A DNA stretch of 64,000 bases from an uncultured Alphaproteobacteria bacterium (GCA_902582755.1 CACHSZ010000002.1:157539-221538); one strand, 5' to 3'. Positions 1-20,413 are shown, numbered from the stretch's first letter. Notes: generated by a model not told the origin, from the sequence alone. Numbers and translations are program-made.

Positions 1-11
1 AAACAAATCTA

Positions 12-749
12 ATGAATAAAATTAATTTAGAAAATAGAGTTGCAATTGTAACGGGTGGAGCACAAGGCTTTGGCTTAGCTATTACTAAAAGATTTATAGA
101 GTCAGGTGCAAAAGTATTAATATGGGATAAAGATACAGAATATTTAAATAAAGTTGATCTAAAAAATACTCAAAAAATTGAAGTTGATGTTTCAAATTAT
201 AAAAGTGTAGAGAATGCATTTGCTGAAAGTATTACATATGAAAACAAAATTGATATTTTAGTAAATAATGCAGGAATAGCTGGACCAAATTTTAAGACAT
301 GGGATTATCCACTTGAGGAATGGCAAAAAGTTATAGACATAGATCTAAGCGGAGTATTTTATTGCTGTAAAACTATAGTTCCTCATTTTATCAAAAATAA
401 TTATGGACGTATCGTTAATATTTCGTCGATAGCTGGTAAGGAAGGTAATCCTAACGCAATGCCTTATAGTGCAGCAAAAGCAGGAGTTATTGCACTTACT
501 AAATCTTTAGGAAAAGAATTAGCTGAAAATAATATTTCAGTTAATTGTGTTACCCCTGCACCTGCTAAAACACGTATTTTTGATCAAATTACACAAGAAC
601 ATATTGATTATATGTTATCAAAAATTCCGAGAAATAGATTTGTGTTAGTAGAAGAATTAGCTTCTTTAGTTGCTTGGATGTCCTCTGAAGAGAATTCTTA
701 TACCACAGGATCAACTTTTGATTTGAGTGGTGGTAGAGCTACTTATTAA
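12..749 (+). CDS. SDR oxidoreductase, similar to 2-keto-3-deoxy sugar-acid dehydrogenases (LRA5-like)
   Basis: TGGAQGFG, NNAG and YSAAK motifs; the GKEGNPNA..YSAAKAG..TKSLGKELA segment resembles LRA5-type enzymes; sugar-acid context. Confidence 0.7.
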   Translation: MNKINLENRVAIVTGGAQGFGLAITKRFIESGAKVLIWDKDTEYLNKVDLKNTQKIEVDVSNYKSVENAFAESITYENKIDILVNNAGIAGPNFKTWDYPLEEWQKVIDIDLSGVFYCCKTIVPHFIKNNYGRIVNISSIAGKEGNPNAMPYSAAKAGVIALTKSLGKELAENNISVNCVTPAPAKTRIFDQITQEHIDYMLSKIPRNRFVLVEELASLVAWMSSEENSYTTGSTFDLSGGRATY

Positions 750-1723
750 TTTTTTCTTCTTTGTATTAGGGCGTAGACTGTTACGGCTACTGTAATCATG
801 AGTCCGTTAATAAATTTTACATAAAAACCAGATAGGCCTAAAGCAACTATTCCTGATTCTAATGATCCAATAATTAATACTCCAATAAAAGTTCCAAAAA
901 TAGTACCTTTGCCACCAAAGACTGAAGTGCCACCAACAAAGACAGCTGCTAGTGTTGTTAACATCAAACCTTCACCTTGTGTAGGCCAGAAATATAACAT
1001 TTCATACATTGTAAAAATTCCTGCTAATGCAGAGAAAAATCCTAGTTGAACAAAAGCAATAATTTTTACATTATCAACGTTAATTCCCATCATTTGGGCG
1101 CTTGCTTTGTTATCACCTACAAAGTGGATATGATTTCCAAATTTATGGTATCGATAAACCCATTGCATCAATCCAGTTAATACAATGAACCAAATAAATT
1201 GCATTGGAATTTTTCCAAATAATTTTTCAACAAATATCATATGATGCCATGTTCCATCAGCTACATCGACGATTGCAATACCGCTACCTTGAGAAATTAC
1301 ATTAACTAATCCACGCCAAAAAAATAATGTACCTATAGTGGCAACTATTGAAGGTATACCAATTTTAGTAACAAGTAATCCATTTACTAATCCAGCAAAC
1401 ATTCCAAGTGAAGTTGCCAAAATAAATGCTATAAAAAAGTTACCATCAGTCGATGTCATTATAATTCCAAATATGAGAGAAGTAATTCCAACTATAGATG
1501 GAAATGATAAATCAATTTCACCAAGAGTAACAACAAAAGTTGCTGATATAGCAATAATGCCAAAAAAAGGCATCGATTGCATGAAAGCTCTGTAAATTGG
1601 AAATCTTGTAAATACATGAGGTGCACCCAAGAAGTAAATTAAGAAAAGCACTATGGCAATTATTGTAATACTAATTTCAAGTTTGTGTGTTTTTACAAAA
1701 TAACTATTTAATAAACTATTCAT
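746..1723 (-). CDS. Sugar ABC transporter permease (RbsC/CUT2 family)
   Basis: Hydrophobic; GEIDLS, GDN..SAQMMGIN and LAAVFVGGTS..GGKG motifs. Confidence 0.93.
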   Translation of the reverse strand: MNSLLNSYFVKTHKLEISITIIAIVLFLIYFLGAPHVFTRFPIYRAFMQSMPFFGIIAISATFVVTLGEIDLSFPSIVGITSLIFGIIMTSTDGNFFIAFILATSLGMFAGLVNGLLVTKIGIPSIVATIGTLFFWRGLVNVISQGSGIAIVDVADGTWHHMIFVEKLFGKIPMQFIWFIVLTGLMQWVYRYHKFGNHIHFVGDNKASAQMMGINVDNVKIIAFVQLGFFSALAGIFTMYEMLYFWPTQGEGLMLTTLAAVFVGGTSVFGGKGTIFGTFIGVLIIGSLESGIVALGLSGFYVKFINGLMITVAVTVYALIQRRKN

Positions 1724-2491
1724 TTAATCTTCTACCTTAATTTTTCCTGATTCATGAAGTTGGATCATTTTTTGAACAAGCTCTTCCCTTGAAATATCTT
1801 CTTTGTTAAACTCTCCTACAACTTCTCCTCTATCTAAAATGATAAACCTATCTGCAGCGCCATATACGTGTATTATATTATGATCGATAAATATTGCAGA
1901 TTTGTTTTCATTTTTTAAACCTTTTACAAAATTAAGAACTTTTTCTGTTTCCTGTATCGATAATCCCATTGTTGGTTCATCTAATACTATTAAATCAGAA
2001 TTAAAATACAATGATCTACCGAAAGCTACACCTTGTTTTTCACCACCAGATAGACCCATTACTTGAGAGTCAACTGTTATTGCCTTTGAAGTAAAACCTA
2101 TATAGTCACGTAAAATTTTTTCTGCTTCTTTTCTTTGTTTTTTTATATCTAAAAAACCAAATGAATTTGTAATTTCTCTTCCTGCAAAGATATTTCTGTA
2201 TAATTCTTGCTGATCACATAATGCTCTTTCTTGATACACTGCTTCAATCCCCATTTTTCTTGATTGAGCAACTGATTTAATTTGTACTTCTTTTTCTTTA
2301 AAAAAAACTTTTCCCGAGTTTGGACTATGAACTCCAGTTATAACTTTTATAAGTGTAGATTTACCAGCTCCGTTATCACCGATTAAAGCTACTACTTCAC
2401 CTTTGTTTATTTTGATATTCACATCTTTTAAAACTTTTACGTTTCCAAAGTTTTTGTAAATATTTTGTAATTTTAAGAGTTCTTCAGCCAT
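1724..2491 (-). CDS. Sugar ABC transporter ATP-binding protein (single domain)
   Basis: Walker A GDNGAGKST, LSGGE signature, Walker B LIVLDEPT. Confidence 0.95.
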   Translation of the reverse strand: MAEELLKLQNIYKNFGNVKVLKDVNIKINKGEVVALIGDNGAGKSTLIKVITGVHSPNSGKVFFKEKEVQIKSVAQSRKMGIEAVYQERALCDQQELYRNIFAGREITNSFGFLDIKKQRKEAEKILRDYIGFTSKAITVDSQVMGLSGGEKQGVAFGRSLYFNSDLIVLDEPTMGLSIQETEKVLNFVKGLKNENKSAIFIDHNIIHVYGAADRFIILDRGEVVGEFNKEDISREELVQKMIQLHESGKIKVED

Positions 2492-2500
2492 AAAAATAAA

Positions 2501-2523
2501 CCTGCCTTATAAAATAAGGCAGG
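2501..2523 (-). terminator. Intra-operon stem-loop or partial terminator between the SBP and ATPase genes
   Basis: Perfect 10-bp inverted repeat CCTGCCTTAT-AAA-ATAAGGCAGG; on the minus strand it is followed by TTTATTTTT and then the ATPase ATG. Confidence 0.75.
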
Positions 2524-2537
2524 CTATAATATTTAAT

Positions 2538-3518
2538 TTATCTGATTTGTACTGCTGCTAATGGAGCAACAGCATCAACGTTATCAGCTGTAACAAATGC
2601 AGCACCAGTATCCATAGCTAATCCAGCCATTCCATATTTTGTACTTAGGAATAACTGAACAATTGGCATATACCCTTGGATAAATGGTTGTTGATCAATT
2701 ACAACATCAATGTAACCAGAATTAATTCCATCAACAATAGGAGCTGATAAATCAAATCCAGCACCACATACTTCTTCAGTACCATGACCTGCAGCCTTCA
2801 TATATGTTGGTAAGCTTGCAGTTAATCCTCCATGATCAGTAATTGCTAATTTGATATCAGGATTTGCACTGTAAGTAGCCACGTACATAGGAGTTCCCTG
2901 TGATGCATCTGAGTTTACGTTATCAGGAATTTCTTGATAAACAACTTCAACACCTGCTGCTTCAACACCTGCTATTGCACCTTTAGTTCTTTCTCCTCTA
3001 TTTGGCATACTTGCGAGACCCCAGATAAATGCTTTATCTCCAGCTTGTAGACCACAAACTTCAACAGCTTTTTTACCTAGATTAAATCCAGCATCAAATA
3101 GATCTGCTCCTGCATAACCAAACCCTTCAGTTTTATATTCTGATTCAAGATCAGGAAGAGGTGTATTCATAGTAGTAATCACTATTCCCATTTCTCTTGC
3201 TTCTTGAATGATAGGTCTCATTGCAGCGTCTCCTGGAAAACCATAGATTGCAATTCCATCAGGCTGTAAAGCAACAGCTTCTTTAAATTGTTTAATCATG
3301 ATTTCTGAGTTCCACTGTGACCAGTAGTAATCTACTTCACAACCAGTGTGTTCAGCAGCAGCTACTGCACCATTATAAACGATAGTTCCAAATGGGCCAC
3401 CTTCAGGACCACCTGGGAAAAATATAAATTTCTTATCACAGCTGTAATCATTTTTTGCTACTGCTGAAGTAGATACAAAAGCAAAAAATAAAGCAATGAC
3501 AGCAAAGATTTTTTTCAT
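2538..3518 (-). CDS. Sugar ABC transporter periplasmic substrate-binding protein (RbsB-like fold)
   Basis: Start moved to MKKIFAV (GGAGG RBS upstream, signal peptide); QPDGI, GFDLS and DQQPFIQGY motifs. Confidence 0.9.
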   Translation of the reverse strand: MKKIFAVIALFFAFVSTSAVAKNDYSCDKKFIFFPGGPEGGPFGTIVYNGAVAAAEHTGCEVDYYWSQWNSEIMIKQFKEAVALQPDGIAIYGFPGDAAMRPIIQEAREMGIVITTMNTPLPDLESEYKTEGFGYAGADLFDAGFNLGKKAVEVCGLQAGDKAFIWGLASMPNRGERTKGAIAGVEAAGVEVVYQEIPDNVNSDASQGTPMYVATYSANPDIKLAITDHGGLTASLPTYMKAAGHGTEEVCGAGFDLSAPIVDGINSGYIDVVIDQQPFIQGYMPIVQLFLSTKYGMAGLAMDTGAAFVTADNVDAVAPLAAVQIR

Positions 3519-3708
3519 AATTCCTCCAAATAATTTATGCATTAATTTATAAGTAAATAAATCAATAATACAATTAAATTAAAGTATTAAAGATCTTATT
3601 ACAAATTAAAATCCCCTTTCTTTTGATAGATAAAATAGTCGCACTTATTTACTAATTTAAAGCAATTTTTATATTTATAAGATTATTAAAAAGTGCTATT
3701 TTTTGATT

Positions 3709-4695
3709 ATGGATGTTGATTTAGGTAAATGGTATCGGGCAAATATAGATAAAAAAGAATTCAAGCAGTTATGCAAGAAATCTGATTGGCAGGGTTTTAA
3801 GCATATGATTATTTATTTTTCATCTCTATTTCTTTTTGGATATCTTGCGTATGTCACTTGGGGCACTTGGTGGTCATTATTATTTTTTTTAATATACGGA
3901 AATATTTGGGGATGCAGCGATGCTATATGGCATGAAACTGGTCACAGAACTGCTTTTAAATCTAAGTTCTGGAATGATTTCTTTTATTATATTGCTAGTT
4001 TCATGGATAATTTTGAACCTATCAGATGGAGATATTCTCACTATCATCACCATACTTATACTCAATTTAATGATCCTGTAGATTTTGAAATACATGTAAA
4101 AAAACCAACTGACTTGATTGTGTTTTTCTCTCATTACATTCCATTCTCAGGTTTTATTTTCTTTAAAAATTCTCTTCAATGGGAAACTATAAAACATGCA
4201 TTTGGTGTAACTACTGATGTAATGAAAGTTTGCATTCCAAAAAATGAAAGATGGAAATGTAGATTATCTGCGTGGAGTCATCTTTCTATTTGGATGATTA
4301 GTATAGCTTCTTCAGTTTACTTTCAAAGTTGGCTTCCAGTTCTATATGTTTTATTGCCTAATTTTTATGGAAAGACCCTTGTTATGCTTATGGGTCTTAC
4401 TCAACACGCAGGACTTAGAGAAGATAAAAGAGACCATAGGTATACAACTAGAACAGTATATTTAAATCCAGTTTTAAGTTTTTTATATTGGCATATGGAA
4501 TATCATGTTGAGCACCATATGTTCCCTCAAGTTCCCTCACATAATTTACCTAAGCTGCATGCTATGATTAAAGATCAATTACCACCTGCCAGAAAAGGTC
4601 TTCTTGGGGCTTATAAAGAAATTGTTCCAGCACTCATAAAACAAGCAAAAAATCCTGACTATCAAATTCCATTATCTGTTCCAAGCAACGCTTAG
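3709..4695 (+). CDS. Fatty-acid-desaturase-family membrane di-iron oxygenase, MocD-like (paralog 1)
   Basis: His boxes HETGH, HYHHH, HVEHH; TQHAGL motif; adjacent to ferredoxin reductase and MocE-type ferredoxin. Confidence 0.85.
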   Translation: MDVDLGKWYRANIDKKEFKQLCKKSDWQGFKHMIIYFSSLFLFGYLAYVTWGTWWSLLFFLIYGNIWGCSDAIWHETGHRTAFKSKFWNDFFYYIASFMDNFEPIRWRYSHYHHHTYTQFNDPVDFEIHVKKPTDLIVFFSHYIPFSGFIFFKNSLQWETIKHAFGVTTDVMKVCIPKNERWKCRLSAWSHLSIWMISIASSVYFQSWLPVLYVLLPNFYGKTLVMLMGLTQHAGLREDKRDHRYTTRTVYLNPVLSFLYWHMEYHVEHHMFPQVPSHNLPKLHAMIKDQLPPARKGLLGAYKEIVPALIKQAKNPDYQIPLSVPSNA

Positions 4696-4700
4696 ACTGA

Positions 4701-5930
4701 GTGAAAAATAACATTATAATTTTAGGTGGTGGTCAAGCCGGAATCTATGCTGCTAGAGAGATAAGACAAAATGATTCAAAATCAAATATTAAAATTTTAG
4801 GTGAAGAAAATTTATTACCATACGAAAGACCTCCTTTATCTAAAGATTTTTTGCTAGATAAAAAAAAAGAAGAAGATCTTTATTTTCATTCTATCGACGT
4901 ACTAAAAAATGAAAATATAGAATTTGAAAATATATCAATTAATAAAGTTGATTTTGAAAATAAAAAACTTTTTGCAAAAAATGATAATGTTTACTCTTAT
5001 GATAGTCTGCTTATTTCAACAGGTTCTGAAAATAAAAAACTTACTTTAGATAACAATTTAAAGAATGATATTTATTATCTAAGAAATTTAGAAGAAGCCA
5101 AAAAAATTAAAGAAATAATTTCAAATAAAAATAAAATAACAATTATTGGTGGTGGTTTTATTGGCTTAGAAATTGCCTCATCTTTATCTCAGCTTCAAAA
5201 GAAAGTAATTGTTATTGAAATTGGTAATCAACTTATGGGAAGAATTATACCCAAACAAATTGCTGATTTAGTTCAAAACACTCATATAGAACATGGAAAT
5301 GAAATAATATTAAATAAACAGATAGAAAAAATAACTAAAAAAAATGGCATTTATGAAATTTTATTAAATGATAATTCTTTAATAGAAACAGATTTTATAA
5401 TTGCAGGTATAGGCTCAACGCCGACTGTAAAGTTATTTGAAAATACAAATTTAAAGCTTGATAATGGTATTGTAACTAATCAATTTTGTGAAACTTCTAT
5501 TAAAGATGTTTATGCAGCAGGTGACGTATCTAATTTTTATCATCCATTCTATGAAAGAAATATGCGACTCGAGTCTTATCAACATGCACAAAATCATGGA
5601 ATATGTGCTGGAAAAAATATTGCTGGAGTAAAAACAGAATACACTTCAATTCCTTGGATGTGGTCTGATCAATTTAATTTGAATCTTCAACTGACTGGTA
5701 TGTGTGATGAATATGATGAAATCATCGAAAGAGGTAATGATATTAATAATGGGGTTATTTATTTTTTCCTAAAAAATAATAAAATAAGAGGAGCATGTGG
5801 TGTTGGAATCATAGGAAAAGTAGGCCGTGACATTAGAATAACTTCTAAATTAACTGAGAAAGATACCATTGTAGATAAACAAATTCTCTCAGATCAAAAT
5901 CTAAAATTAAATAAACTTATACAAAAATAA
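4701..5930 (+). CDS. NAD(P)H:ferredoxin reductase (MocF/putidaredoxin-reductase-like)
   Basis: GGGQAG, PYERPPLSK, GGGFIGLE, AAGD and PWMWSDQF motifs. Confidence 0.92.
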   Translation: MKNNIIILGGGQAGIYAAREIRQNDSKSNIKILGEENLLPYERPPLSKDFLLDKKKEEDLYFHSIDVLKNENIEFENISINKVDFENKKLFAKNDNVYSYDSLLISTGSENKKLTLDNNLKNDIYYLRNLEEAKKIKEIISNKNKITIIGGGFIGLEIASSLSQLQKKVIVIEIGNQLMGRIIPKQIADLVQNTHIEHGNEIILNKQIEKITKKNGIYEILLNDNSLIETDFIIAGIGSTPTVKLFENTNLKLDNGIVTNQFCETSIKDVYAAGDVSNFYHPFYERNMRLESYQHAQNHGICAGKNIAGVKTEYTSIPWMWSDQFNLNLQLTGMCDEYDEIIERGNDINNGVIYFFLKNNKIRGACGVGIIGKVGRDIRITSKLTEKDTIVDKQILSDQNLKLNKLIQK

Positions 5931-5982
5931 CAATTTAATTATTTTGTATTTATTTTCATAAAATAGCTATTATATACAATCT

Positions 5983-6300
5983 ATGTCTGAAGAAAATTGG
6001 ATTGAAGTAGGGTCTACAGATAGTATTGAAGAAGAGGATCTCATCAGATTTGATCATCAAGATAAAACTTTTTGTGTGTATAAACTAACAGATGGTTTTT
6101 ATGCTACCGATGGAATTTGTACACACGAGGCGGTACATCTTGAAGATGGTTTGGTTATGGATGATGAAATTGAATGTCCAATGCACCAGGGAATTTTTAA
6201 TATTAAATCCGGAGAAGCTTTAAGCCCACCAGCGTGTGAGGATTTAAAAACATATCCAGTTAAAGTTGATAATGACAAAATTTTCATTAAGATAGATTAA
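5983..6300 (+). CDS. MocE-family Rieske [2Fe-2S] ferredoxin
   Basis: CTH and CPMH Rieske ligands; EEDLIRFDH and YATDGICTHEAVHLEDGLVM are typical of the MocE family. Confidence 0.9.
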   Translation: MSEENWIEVGSTDSIEEEDLIRFDHQDKTFCVYKLTDGFYATDGICTHEAVHLEDGLVMDDEIECPMHQGIFNIKSGEALSPPACEDLKTYPVKVDNDKIFIKID

Positions 6301-6319
6301 CTATTTTTTTGGAGATTTT

Positions 6320-7147
6320 ATGAGCAGAAAAAAACTTACAGTTTATGATTATTTGCAATGCAAAGGTAAAAGACAACTAAGTGTTATGTTTGTGCATAAT
6401 GCTGATGAGGCTGCAGCAGCTGAAGAGGCAGGCATTGACATGATTTGTACTTCTCATGATGCTCCACAATTTGGTATTTTCAATTCTTTTGATGAGCTTA
6501 AGCGAATTCGCGAAGCTGCACCAACTTGCTTTATGCAATCCGGAGGAGCAGTAAGAGTAGCTTCTGAATACGAAGCAATGAAACTATCACACAAGTATTT
6601 AGACATTGGTGCAGATGTTATCTATGGTGGTAATTGGAGTTACAAATGGATTAGAGCATTAAGAGATGAATATGTTCCAATTAATAGTCATGTTGGATTA
6701 GTTCCAGGAAATGCTACTTGGATTGGAGGATTTGTTGCACAAGGTAAAACAGCAGATAAAGCCATAAGAATATTAGAACATACTCTTGAGTTACAAGAAG
6801 CGGGTGCTATTGGAGTTGAACTCGAAGTAGTTCCACCAAAAGTTGCAGAAGTTATTACAAAAAAAGTTGATATCATGACTCTCTCAATGGGAAGTGGTTC
6901 TGGATGCGATGGGCAATATTTATTTGCAAATGATGTACTTGGATATACTCAAGGAAAAATTCCAAGACATGCTCGAATTTATAGAGATTTTAAAAAAGAA
7001 TTTTCAAAACTACAAGCTGAAAGAGTAAGTGCATTTAAAGAGTTTCACGATGATACGGTAAACAAAAAATTTAATGATCCTAAAATCACAGTTAACATTG
7101 ATGAAGGTGAATTTGAAAAATTTTTAAAACTTTCAGAAAAATTTTGA
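6320..7147 (+). CDS. Divergent PanB (ketopantoate hydroxymethyltransferase)-fold protein
   Basis: Retains HVGLVP, GGF..QGK, LEVVP and GSG..CDGQ.L..DVLG; lacks the canonical GDS, DMPF and KxEG motifs. Confidence 0.75.
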   Translation: MSRKKLTVYDYLQCKGKRQLSVMFVHNADEAAAAEEAGIDMICTSHDAPQFGIFNSFDELKRIREAAPTCFMQSGGAVRVASEYEAMKLSHKYLDIGADVIYGGNWSYKWIRALRDEYVPINSHVGLVPGNATWIGGFVAQGKTADKAIRILEHTLELQEAGAIGVELEVVPPKVAEVITKKVDIMTLSMGSGSGCDGQYLFANDVLGYTQGKIPRHARIYRDFKKEFSKLQAERVSAFKEFHDDTVNKKFNDPKITVNIDEGEFEKFLKLSEKF

Positions 7148-7150
7148 TTA

Positions 7151-8167
7151 ATGTTTGCGGGCGAAGTTGATTTAAAAACTTGGTATAAACCAAAAATAGA
7201 TAAGAAAACTTTAAAGGAACTTTCTAAGAGATCGGATATAAAAGGTTTATTAGATATATCCATATTTATTGTTGCTCTAATATTAAGTGGGTATCTATGT
7301 ATTCTAAGTTGGGGTACTTTATGGTCAATACCTGCTCTTTTGCTTTATGGAAATATTTTCTATTGTAAAATCATAAGCATTCAACATGAAACAAATCACG
7401 AAACATATTTTAAAACAAGAGCGTTAAATAAATTTTTTTATCATATAACTTCTTTACTCGGTGGTTTTGAAGCAGTTAGATGGAAGTGGAGTCATTTTCA
7501 TCACCATACTTACACTATATTTACACATGAAGAGGTGTACGATTATGAAAATAATAGCCCAAAACCAACAGAACCTGTAAGATTTCTTTTAAATTTTTTA
7601 CCTCTTGGTCCAATAATTAATATTCAAAAAATAAGACATTTTACACATTTTGAAATTATTAAACATTCATTTGGGATAATTACTCCTGTTGTAAAAGTAA
7701 CAGTGCCTGAAAAGGAGATAAAAAAAATTATTAATAGTTCAAGATTATATTTAAGTTTTTGGTTGCTCGTAATTTTATGTTCAGTTTTCTTACAATCATG
7801 GTTACCAATCATAATGATAATTCTACCCCCATTTTATGGGAATACTATATTGATGATATGCGGCATGACTCAACATGCTGGACTAGCTGATAATATTAAA
7901 GATCATAGAAAAAGTACAAGAACCGTTATTATGAATCCCTTTTTTAGTTTTTTGTATTCAAACATGGAGTATCATATTGAGCACCACATTTTCCCAAAAA
8001 TCCCATGCCATAATTTAAAAAAATTTCACAAAATAGTTAAAAATCAAATGCCTAAACCTCATAACGGAATAATTTCTGCTTATAGATCAATCATCCCAGC
8101 AATATTTAAGCAATCTAAAGATAAAAATTATTTTATTGATGTGAAGGTTCCAGATACGACAATTTAG
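7151..8167 (+). CDS. Fatty-acid-desaturase-family membrane di-iron oxygenase, MocD-like (paralog 2)
   Basis: His boxes HETNH, HFHHH, HIEHH; TQHAGL; colinear similarity to 3709..4695. Confidence 0.85.
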   Translation: MFAGEVDLKTWYKPKIDKKTLKELSKRSDIKGLLDISIFIVALILSGYLCILSWGTLWSIPALLLYGNIFYCKIISIQHETNHETYFKTRALNKFFYHITSLLGGFEAVRWKWSHFHHHTYTIFTHEEVYDYENNSPKPTEPVRFLLNFLPLGPIINIQKIRHFTHFEIIKHSFGIITPVVKVTVPEKEIKKIINSSRLYLSFWLLVILCSVFLQSWLPIIMIILPPFYGNTILMICGMTQHAGLADNIKDHRKSTRTVIMNPFFSFLYSNMEYHIEHHIFPKIPCHNLKKFHKIVKNQMPKPHNGIISAYRSIIPAIFKQSKDKNYFIDVKVPDTTI

Positions 8168-8205
8168 TCTCTTTTTTTTTATTCAAAATATACTATAAAT
8201 ACATT

Positions 8206-9210
8206 ATGACAAATCAACTGAATGATAGCGATTTTGGTACAAGAGATAAAAGGGGTCATTGGAAACCATTTGGTACAATAAGTATTAACCCACCTAAAGA
8301 TATATTTTTTAACCCGATAAAATTTTTAAAGTATTTTTTTAAATTTCCTGGAATTTTTTTCCCGTGGACCTTTGTCTTTGCAGCAATAACAGTTGCTACA
8401 TATCTTTTTTTGACTCCTTCTTTAGAGACAATGAAGACTTTTGAAATAGGATGGATATCCTATATATTTTTCAGAAACGCAGTTATTATTTTGCTTTGGA
8501 CAGGCTTCTTTCATTTAAGACTGAAGACACAAGGAACTTCATTTAAATATAACCCACGACCTCTAGAAAAAAATAACTCAACTTTTTTATTTAATGATCA
8601 GACTAAAGATAACCTATTCTATACTTTTTGCAGTGCTATTCCATTATGGACAGCTTATGAAGTAATTACATTTTGGGCATTTGCAAATCAAATAATCCCA
8701 TATGTAAGCTGGGAGGCGTATCCAATATATTGTTGTTTTATGTTCTTTCTTGTTCCATTTATAAGAGACGCACATTTTTACTTAACTCATAGATTATTAC
8801 ACTGGGCACCCCTTTATAAAATTGCACATAAAGTACACCACCGTAATACGAATACAGGTGCTTGGTCGGGTATGTCTATGCATCCAATAGAGCATATACT
8901 CTATTTTTCAGGTATCTTAGTTCATTGGATAATTCCTTCACATCCTCTTGTTGCGATGTATCATGTATTTCATGCTGGTTTAGCACCTACACCTGGACAT
9001 ACAGGATATGAAAAAATGACTTTCAAAAATGGTGTATCAATTCCAACAGGTGATTATATGCATTATATCCATCATAAATATTTTGAATGCAATTACTCAG
9101 GTGGAAACACTAGTTTCTTAGATAAATTAATGGGTACGTTCCATGATGGCTCTGAAGAAGCAACCAAAGAAGTAATGGCTCGTATCAAAGATAAAGCCCA
9201 TTACCTCTAA
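8206..9210 (+). CDS. Sterol desaturase / fatty acid hydroxylase superfamily di-iron enzyme
   Basis: HRLLH, HKVHH, HPIE and HYIHH...NY motifs; D..MGTF near the C-terminus. Confidence 0.85.
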   Translation: MTNQLNDSDFGTRDKRGHWKPFGTISINPPKDIFFNPIKFLKYFFKFPGIFFPWTFVFAAITVATYLFLTPSLETMKTFEIGWISYIFFRNAVIILLWTGFFHLRLKTQGTSFKYNPRPLEKNNSTFLFNDQTKDNLFYTFCSAIPLWTAYEVITFWAFANQIIPYVSWEAYPIYCCFMFFLVPFIRDAHFYLTHRLLHWAPLYKIAHKVHHRNTNTGAWSGMSMHPIEHILYFSGILVHWIIPSHPLVAMYHVFHAGLAPTPGHTGYEKMTFKNGVSIPTGDYMHYIHHKYFECNYSGGNTSFLDKLMGTFHDGSEEATKEVMARIKDKAHYL

Positions 9211-9254
9211 ACTTATCTTCATAAATATTAATTTTTATTATATTGATCTAAAAT

Positions 9255-10130
9255 ATGAGTAAGGTCGAATTATATAAAGATGTAAAAAATAGTTTAGGAG
9301 AAGGTATTACTTGGTCTTCAATTGACCAAAGTTTACTTTGGGTAGATATTAAACCAAAATCAGTTTTATTCAGAATTAATTTAGATAACGAAAAATTAGA
9401 AACTTTTGATTTACCTGATTTTGTAACAGCGACGTCAATAATCTCAAAGAATGAAATTGCTTTAGTCTCAAATAATGGAGTAAATAAATTTAACTTTCAA
9501 TCTAAAAAATATGAAAGAATAATTAATGTTGAAGATGATATTTTAACAAATAGATCTAATGATGGTGCATCAGATGCTAAAGGTAGGCTTTGGTTTGGAA
9601 CGATGCAAAATAATTTTAATCAAGATGGAAGTGCAAAATCTTTAAATGCTAAATCTGGTAGTTTATATTGTCTATCTGATAATAAGGTAAATATTGTTGA
9701 AACAAATCTTGGTATACCTAATACATTTGTTTGGAGTCCAGATAACACGAAATTTTATTTTGCCGATACAACTAAGGGATCATTACTAGAATACAATTTT
9801 AGCCTAGATGAAGGTAGTTTGTCAGACAAAAAAAACTTCTTCGATTTTGATAGAGGTGCTCCAGATGGATCAACTATTGATAGTGATGGTTTTATTTGGA
9901 ATTGTCGTTGGGGTGGGTCATGTGTAGTGAGAATAGATCCTAAAGGAAGAATAGATAAAATTTACGAACTACCTGTTGAAAATGTAACAAATTGTGTATT
10001 TGGAGGAAGTGATCTTAAAACTTTATTTATTACAAGTGCAACAAATTCAGGTAAAAATCAATATGATGGTAGTTTATTTGCATTAAATGTTAATGTACCT
10101 GGCCTTGAAGATAATAAATTTAAAATTTGA
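9255..10130 (+). CDS. SMP-30/gluconolactonase family sugar lactonase
   Basis: LGEG..W, NRSNDG..D..GRLWFGTM, PN..WSPD and PDGSTIDSDG motifs. Confidence 0.9.
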   Translation: MSKVELYKDVKNSLGEGITWSSIDQSLLWVDIKPKSVLFRINLDNEKLETFDLPDFVTATSIISKNEIALVSNNGVNKFNFQSKKYERIINVEDDILTNRSNDGASDAKGRLWFGTMQNNFNQDGSAKSLNAKSGSLYCLSDNKVNIVETNLGIPNTFVWSPDNTKFYFADTTKGSLLEYNFSLDEGSLSDKKNFFDFDRGAPDGSTIDSDGFIWNCRWGGSCVVRIDPKGRIDKIYELPVENVTNCVFGGSDLKTLFITSATNSGKNQYDGSLFALNVNVPGLEDNKFKI

Positions 10131-10162
10131 TTTTTTACTTTAATTAGCTAAAACTTTCACAC

Positions 10163-11896
10163 ATGAATAAAAAAAATAAATTTAGATCTTCTAATTGGTA
10201 TAATTCTAAATCACATCGAAGAGATACATTTATTCACAGAGGCTGGATGAGAAATCAAGGTCATCCAAATCATTTGTTTGATGGCCGTCCTGTAATTGGA
10301 ATTTGTAATACTTGGTCAGAATTAACTCCTTGTAATGGTCATTTCAGAGAGATAGCAGAGTCTGTTAAAAAAGGTGTTTATGAAGCCGGCGGTTTTCCTC
10401 TTGAATTTCCTGTTTTTTCAGCAAGCGAATCCAATTTAAGACCCACAGCTATGTTGTTTAGAAATTTAGCAAGTATGGATGTTGAAGAGGCAATAAGGGG
10501 TAATCCTATTGACGGAGTAGTACTATTAATGGGGTGTGACAAAACAACACCTTCGTTAATGATGGGAGCTGCAAGTGTAGATCTTCCTACTATAGGTGTT
10601 TCAGGTGGACCAATGCTCAATGGACACCATCAAGGTGAAACAATAGGTTCTGGCACTGGAGTTTGGAAACTTGATGCAGATTTAAATGCTGGCGTAATTA
10701 CAGAAGAAGATTTTATTAATGCAGAAATTTCAATGAGTAGATCGAAAGGTAATTGCATGACAATGGGGACTGCATCAACAATGGGATCAATGGTGGAAGC
10801 ATTAGGGATGTCACTACCTGGAAATGCTGCAATACCTGCAGTTGATTCAAGAAGATATGCTTTAGCACATATGTCTGGGAAAAGAATTGTTGAAATGGTT
10901 AAGGAAGACATAACTATGTCAAAAATTGTTACAAAAAAATCATTTGAAAATGCAATAAAGGTCAATGGAGCAATAGGGGGATCTACAAATGCGGTTATCC
11001 ATTTGGCTGCAATTGCTGGTCGAATGGAAATAGATTTAGATTTAGAGGACTGGAATAAATGTGGAGATGGTATTCCAACACTAGTAAACTTACAACCTTC
11101 TGGAAAATATTTAATGGAGGATTTTTATTATGCAGGTGGTGTTCCCGTAGTTATAAAAAGATTAATGGAAAAAAAACTATTAGAAGAAAATGAAATGACT
11201 GTTAATGGAAAAACTATATCTGAAAATAATATAAATGCTAAATGTTGGAACAATGATGTTATAAAAGAATTTGAAAATCCATTAACAAAAAATGGAGGAA
11301 TTAAAATTCTTAGAGGTAATATTGCTCCAAATGGTGCAATTATCAAACCATCAGCTGCATCACCAGAATTAATGAAACATACTGGAAAAGCCGTAGTCTT
11401 TGAAAGTGTTGAAGAGTTTCATGAAAAGATTGATGATCCTAATTTAGAAGTTGATGAAAATTCAATATTAGTTTTAAAAAACTGTGGGCCAAAAGGTTAT
11501 CCTGGTATGGCAGAAGTTGGCAATATGAGACTTCCACAAAAAGTTCTAAAGAAAGGTGTGAGAGATATGATTAGAATATCTGACGCCAGAATGAGTGGAA
11601 CAGCATATGGCACAGTTATACTTCATACAGCTCCAGAAGCCGCAGTTAAAGGTCCTTTAGCAGCAGTACAAAATGGAGATGAAATAGAAGTAGATGTTAC
11701 TAATGGTACAATGAATTTAAAAGTTGATGACGAAACAATAAAAAACCGTCTAGAAAATTATTCACCTGTCGTTCCAGAAATCACAGGTGGTTACCAAAAA
11801 ATGTATATAGAACATGTCATGCAAGCTGACAAAGGTGCAGACTTAGATTTTCTTATTGGTAAAAGAGGTGCTGAAGTAAAAAGGCATAGTCATTAA
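10163..11896 (+). CDS. IlvD/Edd-family sugar-acid dehydratase (L-arabinonate dehydratase-like)
   Basis: GICNTWSELTPCN, RPTAMLFRNL, GCDKTTP, GGSTN, SDARMSGT motifs; C-terminal RHSH. Confidence 0.88.
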   Translation: MNKKNKFRSSNWYNSKSHRRDTFIHRGWMRNQGHPNHLFDGRPVIGICNTWSELTPCNGHFREIAESVKKGVYEAGGFPLEFPVFSASESNLRPTAMLFRNLASMDVEEAIRGNPIDGVVLLMGCDKTTPSLMMGAASVDLPTIGVSGGPMLNGHHQGETIGSGTGVWKLDADLNAGVITEEDFINAEISMSRSKGNCMTMGTASTMGSMVEALGMSLPGNAAIPAVDSRRYALAHMSGKRIVEMVKEDITMSKIVTKKSFENAIKVNGAIGGSTNAVIHLAAIAGRMEIDLDLEDWNKCGDGIPTLVNLQPSGKYLMEDFYYAGGVPVVIKRLMEKKLLEENEMTVNGKTISENNINAKCWNNDVIKEFENPLTKNGGIKILRGNIAPNGAIIKPSAASPELMKHTGKAVVFESVEEFHEKIDDPNLEVDENSILVLKNCGPKGYPGMAEVGNMRLPQKVLKKGVRDMIRISDARMSGTAYGTVILHTAPEAAVKGPLAAVQNGDEIEVDVTNGTMNLKVDDETIKNRLENYSPVVPEITGGYQKMYIEHVMQADKGADLDFLIGKRGAEVKRHSH

Positions 11897-11903
11897 TTAA
11901 TTT

Positions 11904-13274
11904 TTATAAATCAAAAACCTTACCTGGATTTAAAATATTATTTGGATCGAAACTTTTTTTAATTAATTTCATTAACGGAATATTATCGGGGTGTTGTTTC
12001 AGTAAATACTCTTTTTTTTGAAGACCAATACCATGCTCACCAGTAATTGTTCCTTCCATCTCTAAAGCTTTATCAATTAATTTATTACTAAATTCTCTAA
12101 TATATTTATATTCATTTTCTTTACTAGGATCATAGATAATAGATACATGAAAATTTCCATCACCCACATGACCAACCATTGGCGCTTTTAATCCAGTGTT
12201 ACGCAGTTCTGTTTCTGCAAATTTAATACATTCCACAATATTTGAAATAGGCACACAAACATCAGTAACATACACTCTAATATTATCACCTTGAGCTTTT
12301 ACAGAATAATAAACATTATGTCTTGCTTTCCAGATTTTGTTTCTTTCTTCTGTATTTGTAGCCCATTTAAACTCACTGCCATTATTATTTTTGGAAATTT
12401 CTTCAACTACACCAATTGATTCTTTATTTGAAATCTCGCTACCATGAAACTCATAGAAAAGTGTTGGCAGACGATCTAAATTGTCTAGTTGTGAGTATCG
12501 TATACTTATATCCATTTGATCTTTATTTAATAACTCTACTCTTGCAATAGGGACGCCATATTGAATTATTTCTTGTGCTGTTAAAACTGCAGAGTCTAGA
12601 TCAGGGAATTGACAAACAGCACTCATTATACTCTCTGGAATTGGAGACAATCGTAGATGCACTTCAGTTATTATTCCTAATGTTCCCTCTGATCCAACAA
12701 AAAGATTGGTTAGATTATATCCTGCAGATGTTTTTTTAGATCTTGTTCCTGTATTTATAATTTCACCATTGGCCATTACAACGGTTAAACCAAGGACTGT
12801 AGTTCTCATTGTACCATATCTCACAGCCATTGTTCCTGAAGCAGAACAAGCAGCCATACCCCCTAGAGAAGCATTTGCACCGGGATCAATTGGAAAGAAA
12901 ACTCCTTTATCTTTTAAAGTTTCATTGAGTTGTTCTCTAGACACATTTGCTTGAACTCGACAATCAAAGTCTGACTCATTAATAGATATAATTTTGTTAA
13001 AATTTTCCATAGAGATTGTGAAACCTTCATCATTTCCAACAACATGACCCTCTAATGATGTGCCTGTGCCATAGGCAGTTACTGGTACTTTAAATTCATT
13101 ACAAATTTTAAGTATTTTTGAAAGTTCTTCATTGTTGTTTGGAAATAAAACTGCTCTAGGTAGAACAGGATCATAAGCATCTTCACCTTTTGCATGATTA
13201 TTTCTTACACTTTCTGAAAATGATATTCTTTCTTGTAAAATATCTTTTAAATTGTCCAATAATCCTCTATCCAT
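11904..13274 (-). CDS. FAD-linked 2-hydroxyacid oxidase/dehydrogenase (D-lactate dehydrogenase / GlcD-like)
   Basis: GTGTSLEGH, FPIDPGA, GSEGTLG, GHVGDGNFH, GEHGIG and NPGK motifs. Confidence 0.88.
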   Translation of the reverse strand: MDRGLLDNLKDILQERISFSESVRNNHAKGEDAYDPVLPRAVLFPNNNEELSKILKICNEFKVPVTAYGTGTSLEGHVVGNDEGFTISMENFNKIISINESDFDCRVQANVSREQLNETLKDKGVFFPIDPGANASLGGMAACSASGTMAVRYGTMRTTVLGLTVVMANGEIINTGTRSKKTSAGYNLTNLFVGSEGTLGIITEVHLRLSPIPESIMSAVCQFPDLDSAVLTAQEIIQYGVPIARVELLNKDQMDISIRYSQLDNLDRLPTLFYEFHGSEISNKESIGVVEEISKNNNGSEFKWATNTEERNKIWKARHNVYYSVKAQGDNIRVYVTDVCVPISNIVECIKFAETELRNTGLKAPMVGHVGDGNFHVSIIYDPSKENEYKYIREFSNKLIDKALEMEGTITGEHGIGLQKKEYLLKQHPDNIPLMKLIKKSFDPNNILNPGKVFDL

Positions 13275-13307
13275 TAATTAATAATATTAATTATTCAATA
13301 AAAGTAA

Positions 13308-14306
13308 ATGAATACCACGCCATTAGAATTAGAAAATATATATGATCTAGCATATAAAGCATTATCAACTAATGGATGTGATCATTTCAATGCTGATTCT
13401 GTAGCGACAACAGTTTCACATGCTGAAAGAGATGGAAGTGTTTCTCATGGATTATTTCGAATTCCTGGTTATGTAGCTTCTCTTAAAAGTAAAAAAGTTA
13501 ATGGAGTCTCAAGACCTACAAATACTTATCTTACACAAAATGCGATTCGTGTTGAAGGTGATTATGGTTTTGCTCCTGTAGGTATAAAAGTTGGTTTGCC
13601 TGAATTGATAAAAACAACAAATAAACACGGAGTTGGTGTTTTAACTATATCTAATACTCATCACTTTGCAGCCTTATGGCACGAAACTGAAGCATTGGCT
13701 GAAAACAACTTAGTTGGGATTGCTTGTACAGCTTATAAACCAAGTGTAGCTCCGGCTGGTGCAAAAAAACCACTATTTGGAACAAATCCAATATCATTTG
13801 CTTGGCCTAGAAAAAATAATACCCCAGTAGTCTATGATATGGCAACTTCAACAATGGCGATGGGGGAAGTTCAGGTTGCAGCACGTGATGGCCATAAAGT
13901 TCCATTTGGAACAGGCTTAAATAAAAATGGAGAAAAAACTGATAATCCTTCTGAAATTGCAAATGGAGGAGTACTTTTAACATTTGGTGACTACAAAGGT
14001 TCTGCAATAGCAATGATGATTGAGTTATTAGCTGCAGGTCTAGTAGGAGATTTATTTAGTTTTGAAGCTAAAGAAGAAGACAATAATGATGGAGGTCCTG
14101 CAAGGGGCGGTGAATTTATTATGGCCTTATCTCCAGAGCTCATTGCAGGAAAAAATTGGAATGAACATGCTGAGAAATTTTTTGAACAAATGACATCTTT
14201 AGACGGTGTACGTTTGCCTGGACAACGAAGACACACTAATAGGCAAAATAAAGGTCCAAGACAAATTAATTCAGAGCTAATAGAAAAGATAAACAGTCTA
14301 ATCTAA
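13308..14306 (+). CDS. Ldh_2-family oxidoreductase (ComC/DpkA-like)
   Basis: SHGLFR, HHFAALW, FGTNP, DMATS, YKGS and RLPG motifs. Confidence 0.85.
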   Translation: MNTTPLELENIYDLAYKALSTNGCDHFNADSVATTVSHAERDGSVSHGLFRIPGYVASLKSKKVNGVSRPTNTYLTQNAIRVEGDYGFAPVGIKVGLPELIKTTNKHGVGVLTISNTHHFAALWHETEALAENNLVGIACTAYKPSVAPAGAKKPLFGTNPISFAWPRKNNTPVVYDMATSTMAMGEVQVAARDGHKVPFGTGLNKNGEKTDNPSEIANGGVLLTFGDYKGSAIAMMIELLAAGLVGDLFSFEAKEEDNNDGGPARGGEFIMALSPELIAGKNWNEHAEKFFEQMTSLDGVRLPGQRRHTNRQNKGPRQINSELIEKINSLI

Positions 14307-14313
14307 TCCATTT

Positions 14314-15504
14314 ATGGATAATATTAAATTAGATTTTCAAAAACATATTGATGCAGGAAGATGTAATGGAGCTGAATGGATAATAAATCATAAAAATAAT
14401 ATTTATCATGACGTAATTGGTTACAAAGATTTGGAATTAAAAAATAAGCTAAATAAAAATTCATATTATAGAATTTGGTCAATGACAAAGCCAATTATTG
14501 GTTTTGCAGCAATGCAATTAATTGAAAAAAATTTCTTATCTCTTGATGATACTATAGATAAACATTTATCTGATTTTAAAAATTTAAAAAAACTTAGTAG
14601 TATTGAGAGTAATTTAAAAAATACAACTTCTCTAGAAGATAAACCTACTGTTAGACAACTTTTACAACATACAGCAGGCTTTACATATAACAGTTGTGAT
14701 AATTTTTTAGCTCAAGAATATGAGGATAGAAGTTTATTTCATTCTGTATCTTCAAGTTTGGAGGAAGAGATTAGTAAAATTTCTGAATTACCTCTGTTAT
14801 ATGAACCTGGTTCAAAATGGCATTATTCTATATCTATTGATGTTTTAGCCAGAATTATAGAAGTTGTAACAAAAGATAAAATTTTTGACGTTTTAAACGA
14901 AAATATTTTTTTACCTTTAGAAATGAATAATACAAATTTTTATATTGATGAAAATAGTAATAGTAAATTAGTTGAAACATTTGAATATAACAGCAATAAA
15001 TTAAAACTAACAAATTTAAATTATGATAAAAGAAAGTTAATATTATACGGGTACCCAACAAATAATAAAAATTATTCCAGAGGAGGCCATGGTTTGTTTT
15101 CTACAGCTGAAGATTATGAAAAATTTGCTACAATGCTTATCGATGGTAAAAATAAAAATGGAAAAGAGCTCATTAATTCTCAAAGTTTAGAATTAATGCG
15201 AAATAATTCTTTAAATAAAGAGTTATTTCCAATTGAAATCACATCAATTAATACGAATAAAGATGAAGATTATGAAAATGATCTAGATGGATATGGTTGG
15301 GGTTTAGGATTTAGAGTGTTAATGAATAATACCTCTCAAAATAAGTTTGGTCCAATTGGAGAATTTGGATGGTCAGGCTATGCCGCTACTTATTTTTTGG
15401 CAGATCCAAAAAATAATTTGTCAGCTGTTTTAATGATGCAAATTTTAGATGCAGATAAGAATATTAAAAAAGATTTTTACAATAATATCTTTAAAAATCT
15501 TTAA
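14314..15504 (+). CDS. Beta-lactamase-family serine hydrolase/esterase
   Basis: SMTK (SxxK), LLQHTAG, PG..WHYS and FGWSG motifs. Confidence 0.88.
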   Translation: MDNIKLDFQKHIDAGRCNGAEWIINHKNNIYHDVIGYKDLELKNKLNKNSYYRIWSMTKPIIGFAAMQLIEKNFLSLDDTIDKHLSDFKNLKKLSSIESNLKNTTSLEDKPTVRQLLQHTAGFTYNSCDNFLAQEYEDRSLFHSVSSSLEEEISKISELPLLYEPGSKWHYSISIDVLARIIEVVTKDKIFDVLNENIFLPLEMNNTNFYIDENSNSKLVETFEYNSNKLKLTNLNYDKRKLILYGYPTNNKNYSRGGHGLFSTAEDYEKFATMLIDGKNKNGKELINSQSLELMRNNSLNKELFPIEITSINTNKDEDYENDLDGYGWGLGFRVLMNNTSQNKFGPIGEFGWSGYAATYFLADPKNNLSAVLMMQILDADKNIKKDFYNNIFKNL

Positions 15505-20328: not shown

Positions 20329-20413
20329 GACTGTTAATAAATAACATATTTTTAAAATAAATTATTATAATTTTTGATGAAATTTCTACTTTGTTAACAT
20401 ATTGTAAGTATTA

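Follow-up and report, generated by a model that had tools for sequence, protein, structure and literature searches.

Two enzyme systems that remove methyl groups from sugars or cyclitols, or are proposed to do so, offer a frame for the locus analyzed here. The closer is rhizobial MocDEF, in which an FA_desaturase-family protein, a MocE-family ferredoxin and a reductase are encoded next to a CUT2-type importer of sugars or cyclitols; in work by Bahar (1998), mocDEF reportedly convert methylated rhizopine. The other comes from marine Flavobacteriia, where a cytochrome P450 demethylates 6-O-methyl-D-galactose together with a ferredoxin and a reductase, as described in the accessible portions of three papers (PMC6292453, PMC9400963, PMC10033563). 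Here we describe a locus in a 64,000-nucleotide stretch of DNA from an uncultured Alphaproteobacteria bacterium (GCA_902582755.1 CACHSZ010000002.1:157539-221538; hereafter the window), in which three membrane di-iron oxygenases, a ferredoxin and its reductase lie in one operon with a PanB-derived protein that we call PanBL, beside a sugar importer and genes of sugar-acid catabolism. We regard this arrangement as MocDEF-like with two features of its own: a new partner family derived from PanB, and a striking expansion in an abundant oligotroph.

The genome is of 1.43 Mb, about 30% G+C, and 85% complete. NCBI protein names read "Pelagibacteraceae bacterium", and the lineage is probably the AEGEAN-169/HIMB59 group. 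From open reading frame (ORF) listing and Pfam and NCBIfam scans, the cluster spans window positions 12-13274. At its core, the genes of a CUT2 sugar ABC importer on the minus strand diverge, with about 160 bases between, from an eight-gene run on the plus strand (3703-11896), in which intergenic gaps measure only 3 to 52 bases. The same scans found each gene named in an earlier, sequence-only reading of this DNA where that reading had placed it. The importer genes and the run, in order, are:

746-1723, minus strand: CUT2-type ABC permease (BPD_transp_2; PF02653, 109.9 bits)
1724-2491, minus strand: ABC ATPase (PF00005, 102.9 bits)
2538-3542, minus strand: periplasmic sugar-binding protein, Peripla_BP_4 (PF13407, 106.9 bits)
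3703-4695, plus strand: oxygenase 1, MocD-like, FA_desaturase family (PF00487, 112.9 bits; translation may in fact begin at an ATG at 3709)
4701-5930, plus strand: NAD(P)H:ferredoxin reductase (Pyr_redox_2, 205.5 bits; Reductase_C, 49.9 bits)
5983-6300, plus strand: MocE-type Rieske [2Fe-2S] ferredoxin (TIGR02377, 136.0 bits against a cut-off of 136.15)
6320-7147, plus strand: PanBL, Pantoate_transf fold (PF02548, a partial match to profile positions 91-256 of 259 only)
7151-8167, plus strand: oxygenase 2, MocD-like, FA_desaturase family (PF00487, 118.1 bits)
8206-9210, plus strand: FA_hydroxylase (sterol-desaturase family) membrane di-iron enzyme (PF04116, 71.3 bits against a cut-off of 31)
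9255-10130, plus strand: SMP30/gluconolactonase-family sugar lactonase (PF08450, 243.1 bits)
10163-11896, plus strand: IlvD/EDD sugar-acid dehydratase of the L-arabinonate dehydratase type (PRK06131, 916.6 bits)

Set against MocDEF, the locus differs in number, partners and host: three oxygenases per operon and nine per genome apparently use one electron chain, a PanB-derived protein accompanies them, and they belong to a streamlined marine bacterium. Downstream lie genes for a lactonase and a sugar-acid dehydratase, whereas MocDEF goes with MocA/MocC and an inositol route; family scans of the window genes revealed no MocA-, MocC- or MocR-type gene in the cluster. Nor is the binding protein of the rhizopine type (82.6 bits against a cut-off of 420), and the likeness to MocDEF is drawn through a Sinorhizobium meliloti homolog. 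Loci in Microvirga and R. leguminosarum, sought through the binding protein as candidates for the authentic rhizopine locus, both proved to be unrelated. The resemblance to the flavobacterial P450 system, as far as the accessible portions of those papers describe it, lies in the proposed logic: an O2-dependent three-component enzyme converts the methyl ether of an algal sugar to formaldehyde, which opens the sugar to catabolism, and formaldehyde handling is tied to the pathway. The catalysts are nonetheless different, a heme P450 there and membrane di-iron enzymes here, as is the type of ferredoxin; the PanB-like partner is absent there, and the function here is proposed from genes. Weimberg- and Dahms-type nonphosphorylative routes likewise pair an SMP30-family lactonase with an IlvD/EDD dehydratase, but the present cluster has no 2-keto-3-deoxy-acid dehydratase, aldolase or semialdehyde dehydrogenase, and places oxygenases upstream in the operon.

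Literature searches found neither a description of the cluster nor any paper connecting enzymes of the FA_desaturase type with MocE and a PanB-like protein. Two genomic papers on what is probably this lineage are silent in their main texts, although supplementary pangenome tables may list the genes: PMC10308909 mentions no desaturase, ferredoxin, inositol or pantoate, and PMC11366302 no desaturase or inositol, its sole "oxygenase" being RubisCO. The accessible part of a paper on pinitol (PMC9788770) names no bacterial demethylase of the MocD-like type.

The oxygenases carry the histidines expected of their families. In alignment A1 of the FA_desaturase-family proteins, H77/H81, H113/H116/H117, H235 and H268/H271/H272 are invariant, oxygenase 2 is 45% identical to oxygenase 1, and the translated FA_hydroxylase displays HxxxxH, HxxHH and HxxHH boxes. 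In being eight-histidine membrane di-iron enzymes they resemble the arginine hydroxylase GntB, alkylglycerol monooxygenase and sterol C4-methyl oxidase—enzymes that act on polar substrates or cleave ethers—while being distant from them in sequence. Among NCBIfam models, oxygenase 1 matches two and oxygenase 2 four, GntB included, the GntB matches (E 5e-8 and 2e-11) scoring far below the cut-off; against solved structures, oxygenase 1 found no match at E <= 0.01.

Pfam and database names call such proteins fatty acid desaturases and hydroxylases, and taken at face value they would be ordinary lipid desaturases or hydroxylases, or hydrocarbon oxygenases, that sit near sugar genes by chance. Their genomic setting makes this reading highly improbable. 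Nine such genes occur in a 1.43-Mb genome, eight of them within sugar clusters. Five of the six FA_desaturase genes lie in clusters for sugar uptake or catabolism and encode proteins 45-54% identical to one another; the divergent sixth (18% identical) sits amid unrelated genes, apart from those for sugars. The three copies outside the window belong to operons with CUT2 binding proteins, permeases and ATPases, which also carry aldehyde dehydrogenase, ThuA, GFO/IDH/MocA or PhyH genes. Of four FA_hydroxylase genes, three are in sugar clusters, one of them within the window, and the remaining one comes after genes for a GMC oxidoreductase and an aldehyde dehydrogenase. Neighbors of the same kind (sugar transporters, MocE, PanBL) turn up, moreover, from family to family, and also in S. 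meliloti, where a LacI-type regulator gene adjoins them. Because the oxygenase genes are found in sugar clusters so repeatedly, a lipid role is very unlikely for both the MocD-like and the FA_hydroxylase proteins, and the sequence-only reading, which had denied that these "desaturases" are lipid enzymes, stands on this point. Elsewhere in the genome, two FA_hydroxylase genes lie tail to tail (C1:345928-354278; L095:5928-14278) in a cluster with an ABC ATPase, an aldo/keto reductase, an enolase-superfamily protein, Amidohydro_2 and a short-chain dehydrogenase/reductase (SDR), adjoined by GntR, PhyH and a CUT1 binding protein; parts of this cluster resemble the L-fucose oxidative route.

A single electron chain, also claimed earlier, is borne out. 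Scanning the genome with TIGR02377 returned one strong match, the MocE-type ferredoxin (135.1 bits), whose CxH...CxxH Rieske motif is intact; the next Rieske protein scored 34.7 bits. The family cut-off of 136.15 is exceeded in 7 of 80 genomes of the order, by near-identical ferredoxins. Likewise, the genome encodes only one close ferredoxin reductase, that of the window, which starts five bases past oxygenase 1 and is HcaD-like (300 bits, below the cut-off of 450). With one MocE ferredoxin and one close reductase at hand, the nine membrane di-iron enzymes of the genome appear to share, and to depend on, the chain encoded in the window. Of the other genomes in the genus, 31 of 36 have a MocE-type ferredoxin (E <= 1e-25); the figures are 35 of 45 for the family and 1 of 34 for the sister family. 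The weaker Rieske protein that came second in the TIGR02377 scan (34.7 bits) is encoded beside the genome's only FAH-family hydrolase at C2:91969-94133, a pair that lies a few kb upstream of another cluster of transporter, PhyH and MocD-like genes (L008).

PanBL is derived from PanB but is a different protein. It falls short of both PanB models (102.6 bits on TIGR00222, cut-off 207.55; 117.6 on PRK00311, cut-off 272), and the genome encodes a true PanB besides (259 bits), along with two PanBL paralogs. Its predicted structure (AF2; predicted local distance difference test, pLDDT, 88.6) adopts the TIM-barrel fold of PanB: the top matches in the PDB are all PanB (E 3e-18, TM score 0.70, 23-27% identity), followed by phosphoenolpyruvate (PEP) mutase and methylisocitrate lyase. 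When 20 PanBL sequences were aligned with E. coli PanB and two true PanBs, H136, E181, G203, D209 and D217 were found to be retained in all 20, as PanB has them. Unlike PanB, all 20 have D84, K112 and E114 replaced and the LVGDS segment deleted or not conserved; the GxGAG/DxQ region is retained, and a C-terminal extension is present. The lost residues belong to the half of the pocket that holds Mg2+ and the keto acid in the E. coli PanB structure, so that PanBL, which keeps H136 and E181, would preserve only the other half. A 2026 study of PanB, in its accessible part, reports a charged pocket of D45/46, D84, K112, E114, H136 and E181 as conserved in all homologs compared (PMC13488298). Judged by its aligned residues, PanBL lacks three of these six conserved charged positions and thus cannot work as PanB does.

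Annotation has nonetheless named PanBL relatives PanB, among them the S. meliloti copy and the clusters of a protein atlas. Of the seven Alphaproteobacteria in our sample with PanBL but no MocD-like match, five carry a distinct subtype in which M and Q stand where PanB has residues 112 and 114. Three genomes (G155, G079 and G297) hold one to five PanBL paralogs each, with no match over the true-PanB cut-off in a TIGR00222 search. In the present genome, the stop codon of a GH4 alpha-galactosidase gene (PRK15076, 585.8 bits, over the cut-off) overlaps the start of the second PanBL gene (C9:29464-31654; L048:8464-10655), and this operon adjoins a CUT1 transporter and binding protein. A MocD-like gene precedes the same GH4-PanBL pair in a congener (L051), and in a congener two PanBL genes in tandem adjoin those for a BNR protein, an MFS transporter and two PhyH dioxygenases. 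These other settings of PanBL, too, are tied to carbohydrates.

The association between PanBL and MocD-like oxygenases recurs well beyond this genome. A genome of the same genus (L042) keeps the whole arrangement from SDR to dehydratase. In the family (46 genomes, our own included), the PanBL profile is found in 41 and MocD-like proteins in 43, and the numbers of matches to each, which are not exact copy numbers, correlate across the 46 (Spearman 0.73). Ten family loci centered on MocE include a desaturase or hydroxylase in nine cases and PanBL in eight; L089 has neither oxygenase nor PanBL, and L084 has no PanBL. One 13-kb stretch (L090) packs together three desaturases, one hydroxylase and four PanBL paralogs. 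In the sister family—the order comprises two families in the comparison set—PanBL directly adjoins a MocD-like gene 62-63% identical to oxygenase 1 at two loci (L054 and L055, in G030 and G339). The FA_hydroxylase also has a homolog (G079, 47% identical) that directly adjoins MocE and the reductase.

More distant genomes tell the same story. On pSymB of S. meliloti, a LacI gene adjoins a module of desaturase, MocE, reductase and PanBL, annotated respectively as "fatty acid desaturase family protein", "MocE family 2Fe-2S type ferredoxin", "FAD-dependent oxidoreductase" and "3-methyl-2-oxobutanoate hydroxymethyltransferase"; its desaturase is 43% identical to oxygenase 1. Among 400 other Alphaproteobacteria, searched for full-length PanBL-type and MocD-like matches, 17 have PanBL, 17 have MocD-like proteins and 10 (from 8 genera) have both; chance alone would give 0.7 (Fisher p 1e-11, related genomes not being independent). 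The PanBL-type matches in this sample are 37-47% identical, except for a 98% copy in one same-genus genome. Finally, a blind Pfam tally of 92 genes lying within four genes of 15 PanBL genes (11 loci) ranked FA_desaturase first with 15, followed by Rieske with 8, CUT2 parts with 6 each, GH4 with 5, PhyH and reductase with 4 each, and aldehyde dehydrogenase and FA_hydroxylase with 3 each. PanBL is, then, a recurrent and specific partner of MocD-like oxygenases, and the co-occurrence of MocD-like, MocE, reductase and PanB-like genes, which the sequence-only reading had put up for testing, holds across distant genomes. A predicted complex of oxygenase 2 (alignment A3) with PanBL (A2) scored 0.00 against a mark of 0.32, which carries no weight either way.

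What, then, does this machinery act upon? Binding protein, permease and ATPase are encoded together in one operon, and the solved relatives of the binding protein are sugar-binding proteins. Its closest plasmid relative, from Photobacterium (39% identical by blastp, 41% by tblastn), lies beside a GH4 glycosidase, and the same importer type stands beside GH4 glycosidases at two family loci (L083 and L087). Downstream, the dehydratase passes the cut-off of PRK06131 (539) but stays below that of the equivalog PRK13016 (837.9 bits, cut-off 882); against solved structures it scores 830 bits with the Rhizobium L-arabinonate dehydratase (5j83/5j84) and 828 with 9evv, likewise named L-arabinonate dehydratase, which would make it a close relative of L-arabinonate dehydratase. 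For the lactonase, the best solved relative is 7plb (144 bits). Lactonase and dehydratase act on aldose-derived lactones and acids, so the enzyme complement points to a galacto- or arabino-configured aldose as the backbone rather than a cyclitol. The sugar-acid route envisaged by the sequence-only reading is therefore in keeping with these two genes, while the cyclitols it had suggested, such as laminitol or mytilitol, fit them poorly.

Five further features flank or punctuate these operons:

12-749, plus strand: SDR oxidoreductase (Pfam adh_short, 177.7 bits)
2499-2525, minus strand: terminator-like hairpin between the binding-protein and ATPase genes (12-pair stem, then a T run; a consensus match only)
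11904-13274, minus strand: GlcD-like FAD-linked 2-hydroxyacid oxidase/dehydrogenase (PF02913, PF01565; TIGR00387, 340.6 bits against a cut-off of 567.9)
13308-14306, plus strand: Ldh_2-family dehydrogenase (PF02615, 287.3 bits; NCBIfam matches all below cut-off)
14314-15504, plus strand: beta-lactamase-family serine esterase (PF00144, 167.3 bits)

The SDR is a candidate sugar 1-dehydrogenase or 2-keto-3-deoxy-acid 4-dehydrogenase. The earlier label "LRA5-like" found no confirmation: its NCBIfam matches are generic (FabG, glucose 1-dehydrogenase) and all below cut-off except for broad subfamilies, its best solved relatives (9jve, 9kq1 and 6d9y, 284-298 bits) bear generic names only, and a single-sequence fold model (pLDDT 29.5) was too poor for use. 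Upstream of the window are genes for DsbD, a redoxin and ammonium transporters; these being unrelated, the cluster is taken to start at the SDR. At the other end, the gene for the GlcD-like enzyme, which possibly serves an end step of the pathway, is convergent with the eight-gene run. Membership of the Ldh_2 dehydrogenase is uncertain, as is that of the serine esterase, which matches a single NCBIfam model, that of AcmB, a methyl acetate hydrolase (158.5 bits, cut-off 550), and might remove O-acyl groups from the same substrates. Beyond these lies a pentitol/pentulose module (16414-21178) with a xylulokinase (TIGR01312, 529.7 bits, over the cut-off), a D-arabinitol 4-dehydrogenase-like protein, a Zn-dependent dehydrogenase and an SDR, by which the sugar island reaches to about 21 kb. 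Further along, the window holds an ORF of 1746 amino acids (45116-50356, plus strand). A promoter scan returned 61 promoter-like sites where shuffles gave an expectation of 76, and is uninformative in DNA so rich in A and T.

We give an even chance to the reading that the locus serves the catabolism of an aldose or small glycoside that is imported with a chemical decoration, which the oxygenases then strip. The genes present, their order and families, the pattern of co-occurrence and the altered site of PanBL are established; the soluble sugar substrate, O-dealkylation, the role of PanBL and the order of steps, set out next, are our inference. The CUT2 ABC system would bring the decorated substrate into the cytoplasm, where the three membrane-bound di-iron monooxygenases (two MocD-like, one FA_hydroxylase) would act at the inner face of the membrane, supplied with electrons from NAD(P)H by way of the ferredoxin reductase and the MocE-type Rieske ferredoxin. 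Hydroxylation would fall on a C-H next to an ether oxygen, the likeliest target being an O-methyl group that would leave as formaldehyde (or another aldehyde), so that a plain sugar remains. PanBL may then pass the hydroxymethyl or formaldehyde unit to tetrahydrofolate, which is our preferred guess for its function. Once freed, the sugar would be oxidized to a lactone, which the SMP30 lactonase would open; the L-arabinonate-type dehydratase would turn the resulting acid into a 2-keto-3-deoxy acid. Split elsewhere, this would yield pyruvate and a small hydroxy acid that the GlcD-like enzyme could oxidize. For O-demethylation, the analogies are the MocDEF model and the marine 6-O-methyl-galactose demethylase, a P450.

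A different chemistry at the same step is conceivable, although we consider it rather unlikely: the oxygenases may remove no O-methyl group at all, and instead add a hydroxyl to an unactivated carbon in a sugar or cyclitol of the deoxy or C-methyl type, for example the C6 methyl of a 6-deoxyhexose to give a hexose, or a uronic acid on further oxidation, PanBL then removing or rearranging the new hydroxymethyl. Methyl and methylene C-H bonds are what FA_desaturase and FA_hydroxylase enzymes typically attack, and the route that the tail-to-tail FA_hydroxylase pair accompanies resembles one for the 6-deoxy sugar L-fucose. An aldehyde dehydrogenase gene directly follows a MocD-like gene both in the present genome (L007) and at L083 and L086-L088, and PanB chemistry itself makes and breaks a C-CH2OH bond. 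PanBL, however, is without the residues that stabilize a keto-acid enolate for such PanB-type C-C chemistry, and the sole functional precedent known to have been proposed for the clade is O-demethylation. The present data do not tell the two chemistries apart.

The order of the run—oxygenases, lactonase, dehydratase, with gaps of at most 52 bases and no dehydrogenase between—would be explained if the oxygenases cleaved a glycosidic or ether bond outright. By hydroxylating the carbon that bears the ether oxygen, and the anomeric carbon in particular, they would release an aldonolactone and the aglycone directly. Alkylglycerol monooxygenase, of the FA_hydroxylase family, cleaves ethers in this way; one genome (G297) has the order desaturase, MocE, PanBL and IlvD; and the importer type beside GH4, in plasmid relatives of the binding protein and at L083 and L087, suggests a small-glycoside cargo. 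Still, no membrane di-iron enzyme known to us attacks an anomeric carbon, the flanking SDR could itself serve as sugar dehydrogenase, and the four-gene module of S. meliloti contains neither lactonase nor dehydratase. Such cleavage therefore seems distinctly unlikely to us.

PanBL invites an alternative of its own, in that the cluster contains no obvious aldolase by family scans of the window genes. Were PanBL an aldolase or C-C hydrolase acting on the 2-keto-3-deoxy acid of the dehydratase, its link with the oxygenases would be incidental. PanB belongs to the TIM-barrel superfamily of class II 2-keto-acid aldolases and isocitrate-lyase-type enzymes, the next fold matches of PanBL are PEP mutase and methylisocitrate lyase, and IlvD adjoins PanBL in G297. 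We nevertheless regard this as improbable, given the loss of D84, K112 and E114 in every sequence aligned, a commonest neighbor that is FA_desaturase rather than IlvD, and the company that PanBL keeps with oxygenases where there is no dehydratase (S. meliloti, G039, G030 and L081-L090). The genome's HpcH/HpaI-type aldolases and its FAH-family hydrolase are, moreover, encoded elsewhere, outside the cluster.

Transfer of the one-carbon unit to tetrahydrofolate is favored for PanBL because the keto-acid half-site is gone, because a formate-tetrahydrofolate ligase is present (896 bits) and because no glutathione-type formaldehyde dehydrogenase was found in this 85% complete genome (best score 32.5 bits, cut-off 544). 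Capture of the one-carbon unit by PanBL nonetheless stays at the level of a hypothesis, since no folate-related family ranks in the top 25 of the 62 Pfam families that the 92 neighbor genes match. The sequence-only reading had assigned this step to the PanB-fold protein, a claim that the missing D84, K112 and E114, the scores below both PanB cut-offs and the same neighbor tally leave without support; taken as a whole, that reading is partly supported.

Several observations weigh against the decorated-sugar reading and O-demethylation, beside the lack of folate genes near PanBL. The demethylation model leans by analogy on MocDEF, which is itself only a genetic model, and the only NCBIfam match of the binding protein, to rhizopine binding protein NF052284, is far below the cut-off, as its score above indicates. 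Several PanBL paralogs per genome argue against generic formaldehyde handling. Among 25 PanBL loci across the class, a desaturase, hydroxylase, MocE or reductase lies in the stretch in 11; the other 14 show no oxygenase there, 4 of these stretches being no longer than 3.8 kb, and the C9 copy of the present genome follows the GH4 alpha-galactosidase gene rather than an oxygenase. In the sister family, where desaturase and PanBL genes do occur in pairs, a MocE-type ferredoxin is missing at E <= 1e-25 from 33 of 34 genomes, from which it follows that this electron chain is not obligatory. No sugar 1-dehydrogenase, moreover, is firmly identified.

Sequences from the locus are also found in seawater RNA libraries. 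Between 36 and 46% of the words sampled from window 3600-9300 occur in fourteen metatranscriptome runs from nine studies. With window 1-14400 divided into 30 bins, the contigs from each of four seawater runs, all of different studies, reach 27 to 30 of them at identities of at least 95%. Contigs of RNA libraries cannot prove transcription, however, as such libraries can contain DNA, and they give no expression levels; support for transcription of the locus in seawater is thus weak. In all four runs, contig depth over the binding-protein gene is 10 to 100 times that of neighboring bins, although contig depth cannot rank genes, and the terminator-like hairpin at 2499-2525 falls directly between this deeply covered gene and that of the ATPase.

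It is tempting, if speculative, to extend the picture to the lineage as a whole, in terms that we hold to be unlikely but worth stating. A streamlined ocean lineage might possess an unrecognized toolkit for decorated sugars, comprising up to about seven MocD-like enzymes and several FA_hydroxylases, all served by one ferredoxin/reductase pair and often each with a PanBL paralog of its own. PanBL, having lost the Mg2+/keto-acid site, would take the hydroxymethyl (hemiformal) or formaldehyde unit to tetrahydrofolate, such that methyl ethers could be burnt as one-carbon fuel with no free formaldehyde.

In marine dissolved organic matter, methylated and deoxy sugars make up a notable share. Among the papers that we found, a single sugar demethylase is described, the P450 system of polysaccharide-degrading Flavobacteriia, going by the accessible portions of the papers on it (PMC6292453, PMC9400963, PMC10033563). 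Should the proposed function be true, an abundant lineage of free-living oligotrophs would have a different and much expanded solution to sugar demethylation; public proteins at least 90% identical form clusters of 2184 members for oxygenase 1 and 848 for PanBL. It would also provide a first function for a PanB-derived family that is now annotated as PanB, and a wider biochemical setting for the MocDEF model. The four-gene module on pSymB of S. meliloti makes the idea testable in a tractable organism.

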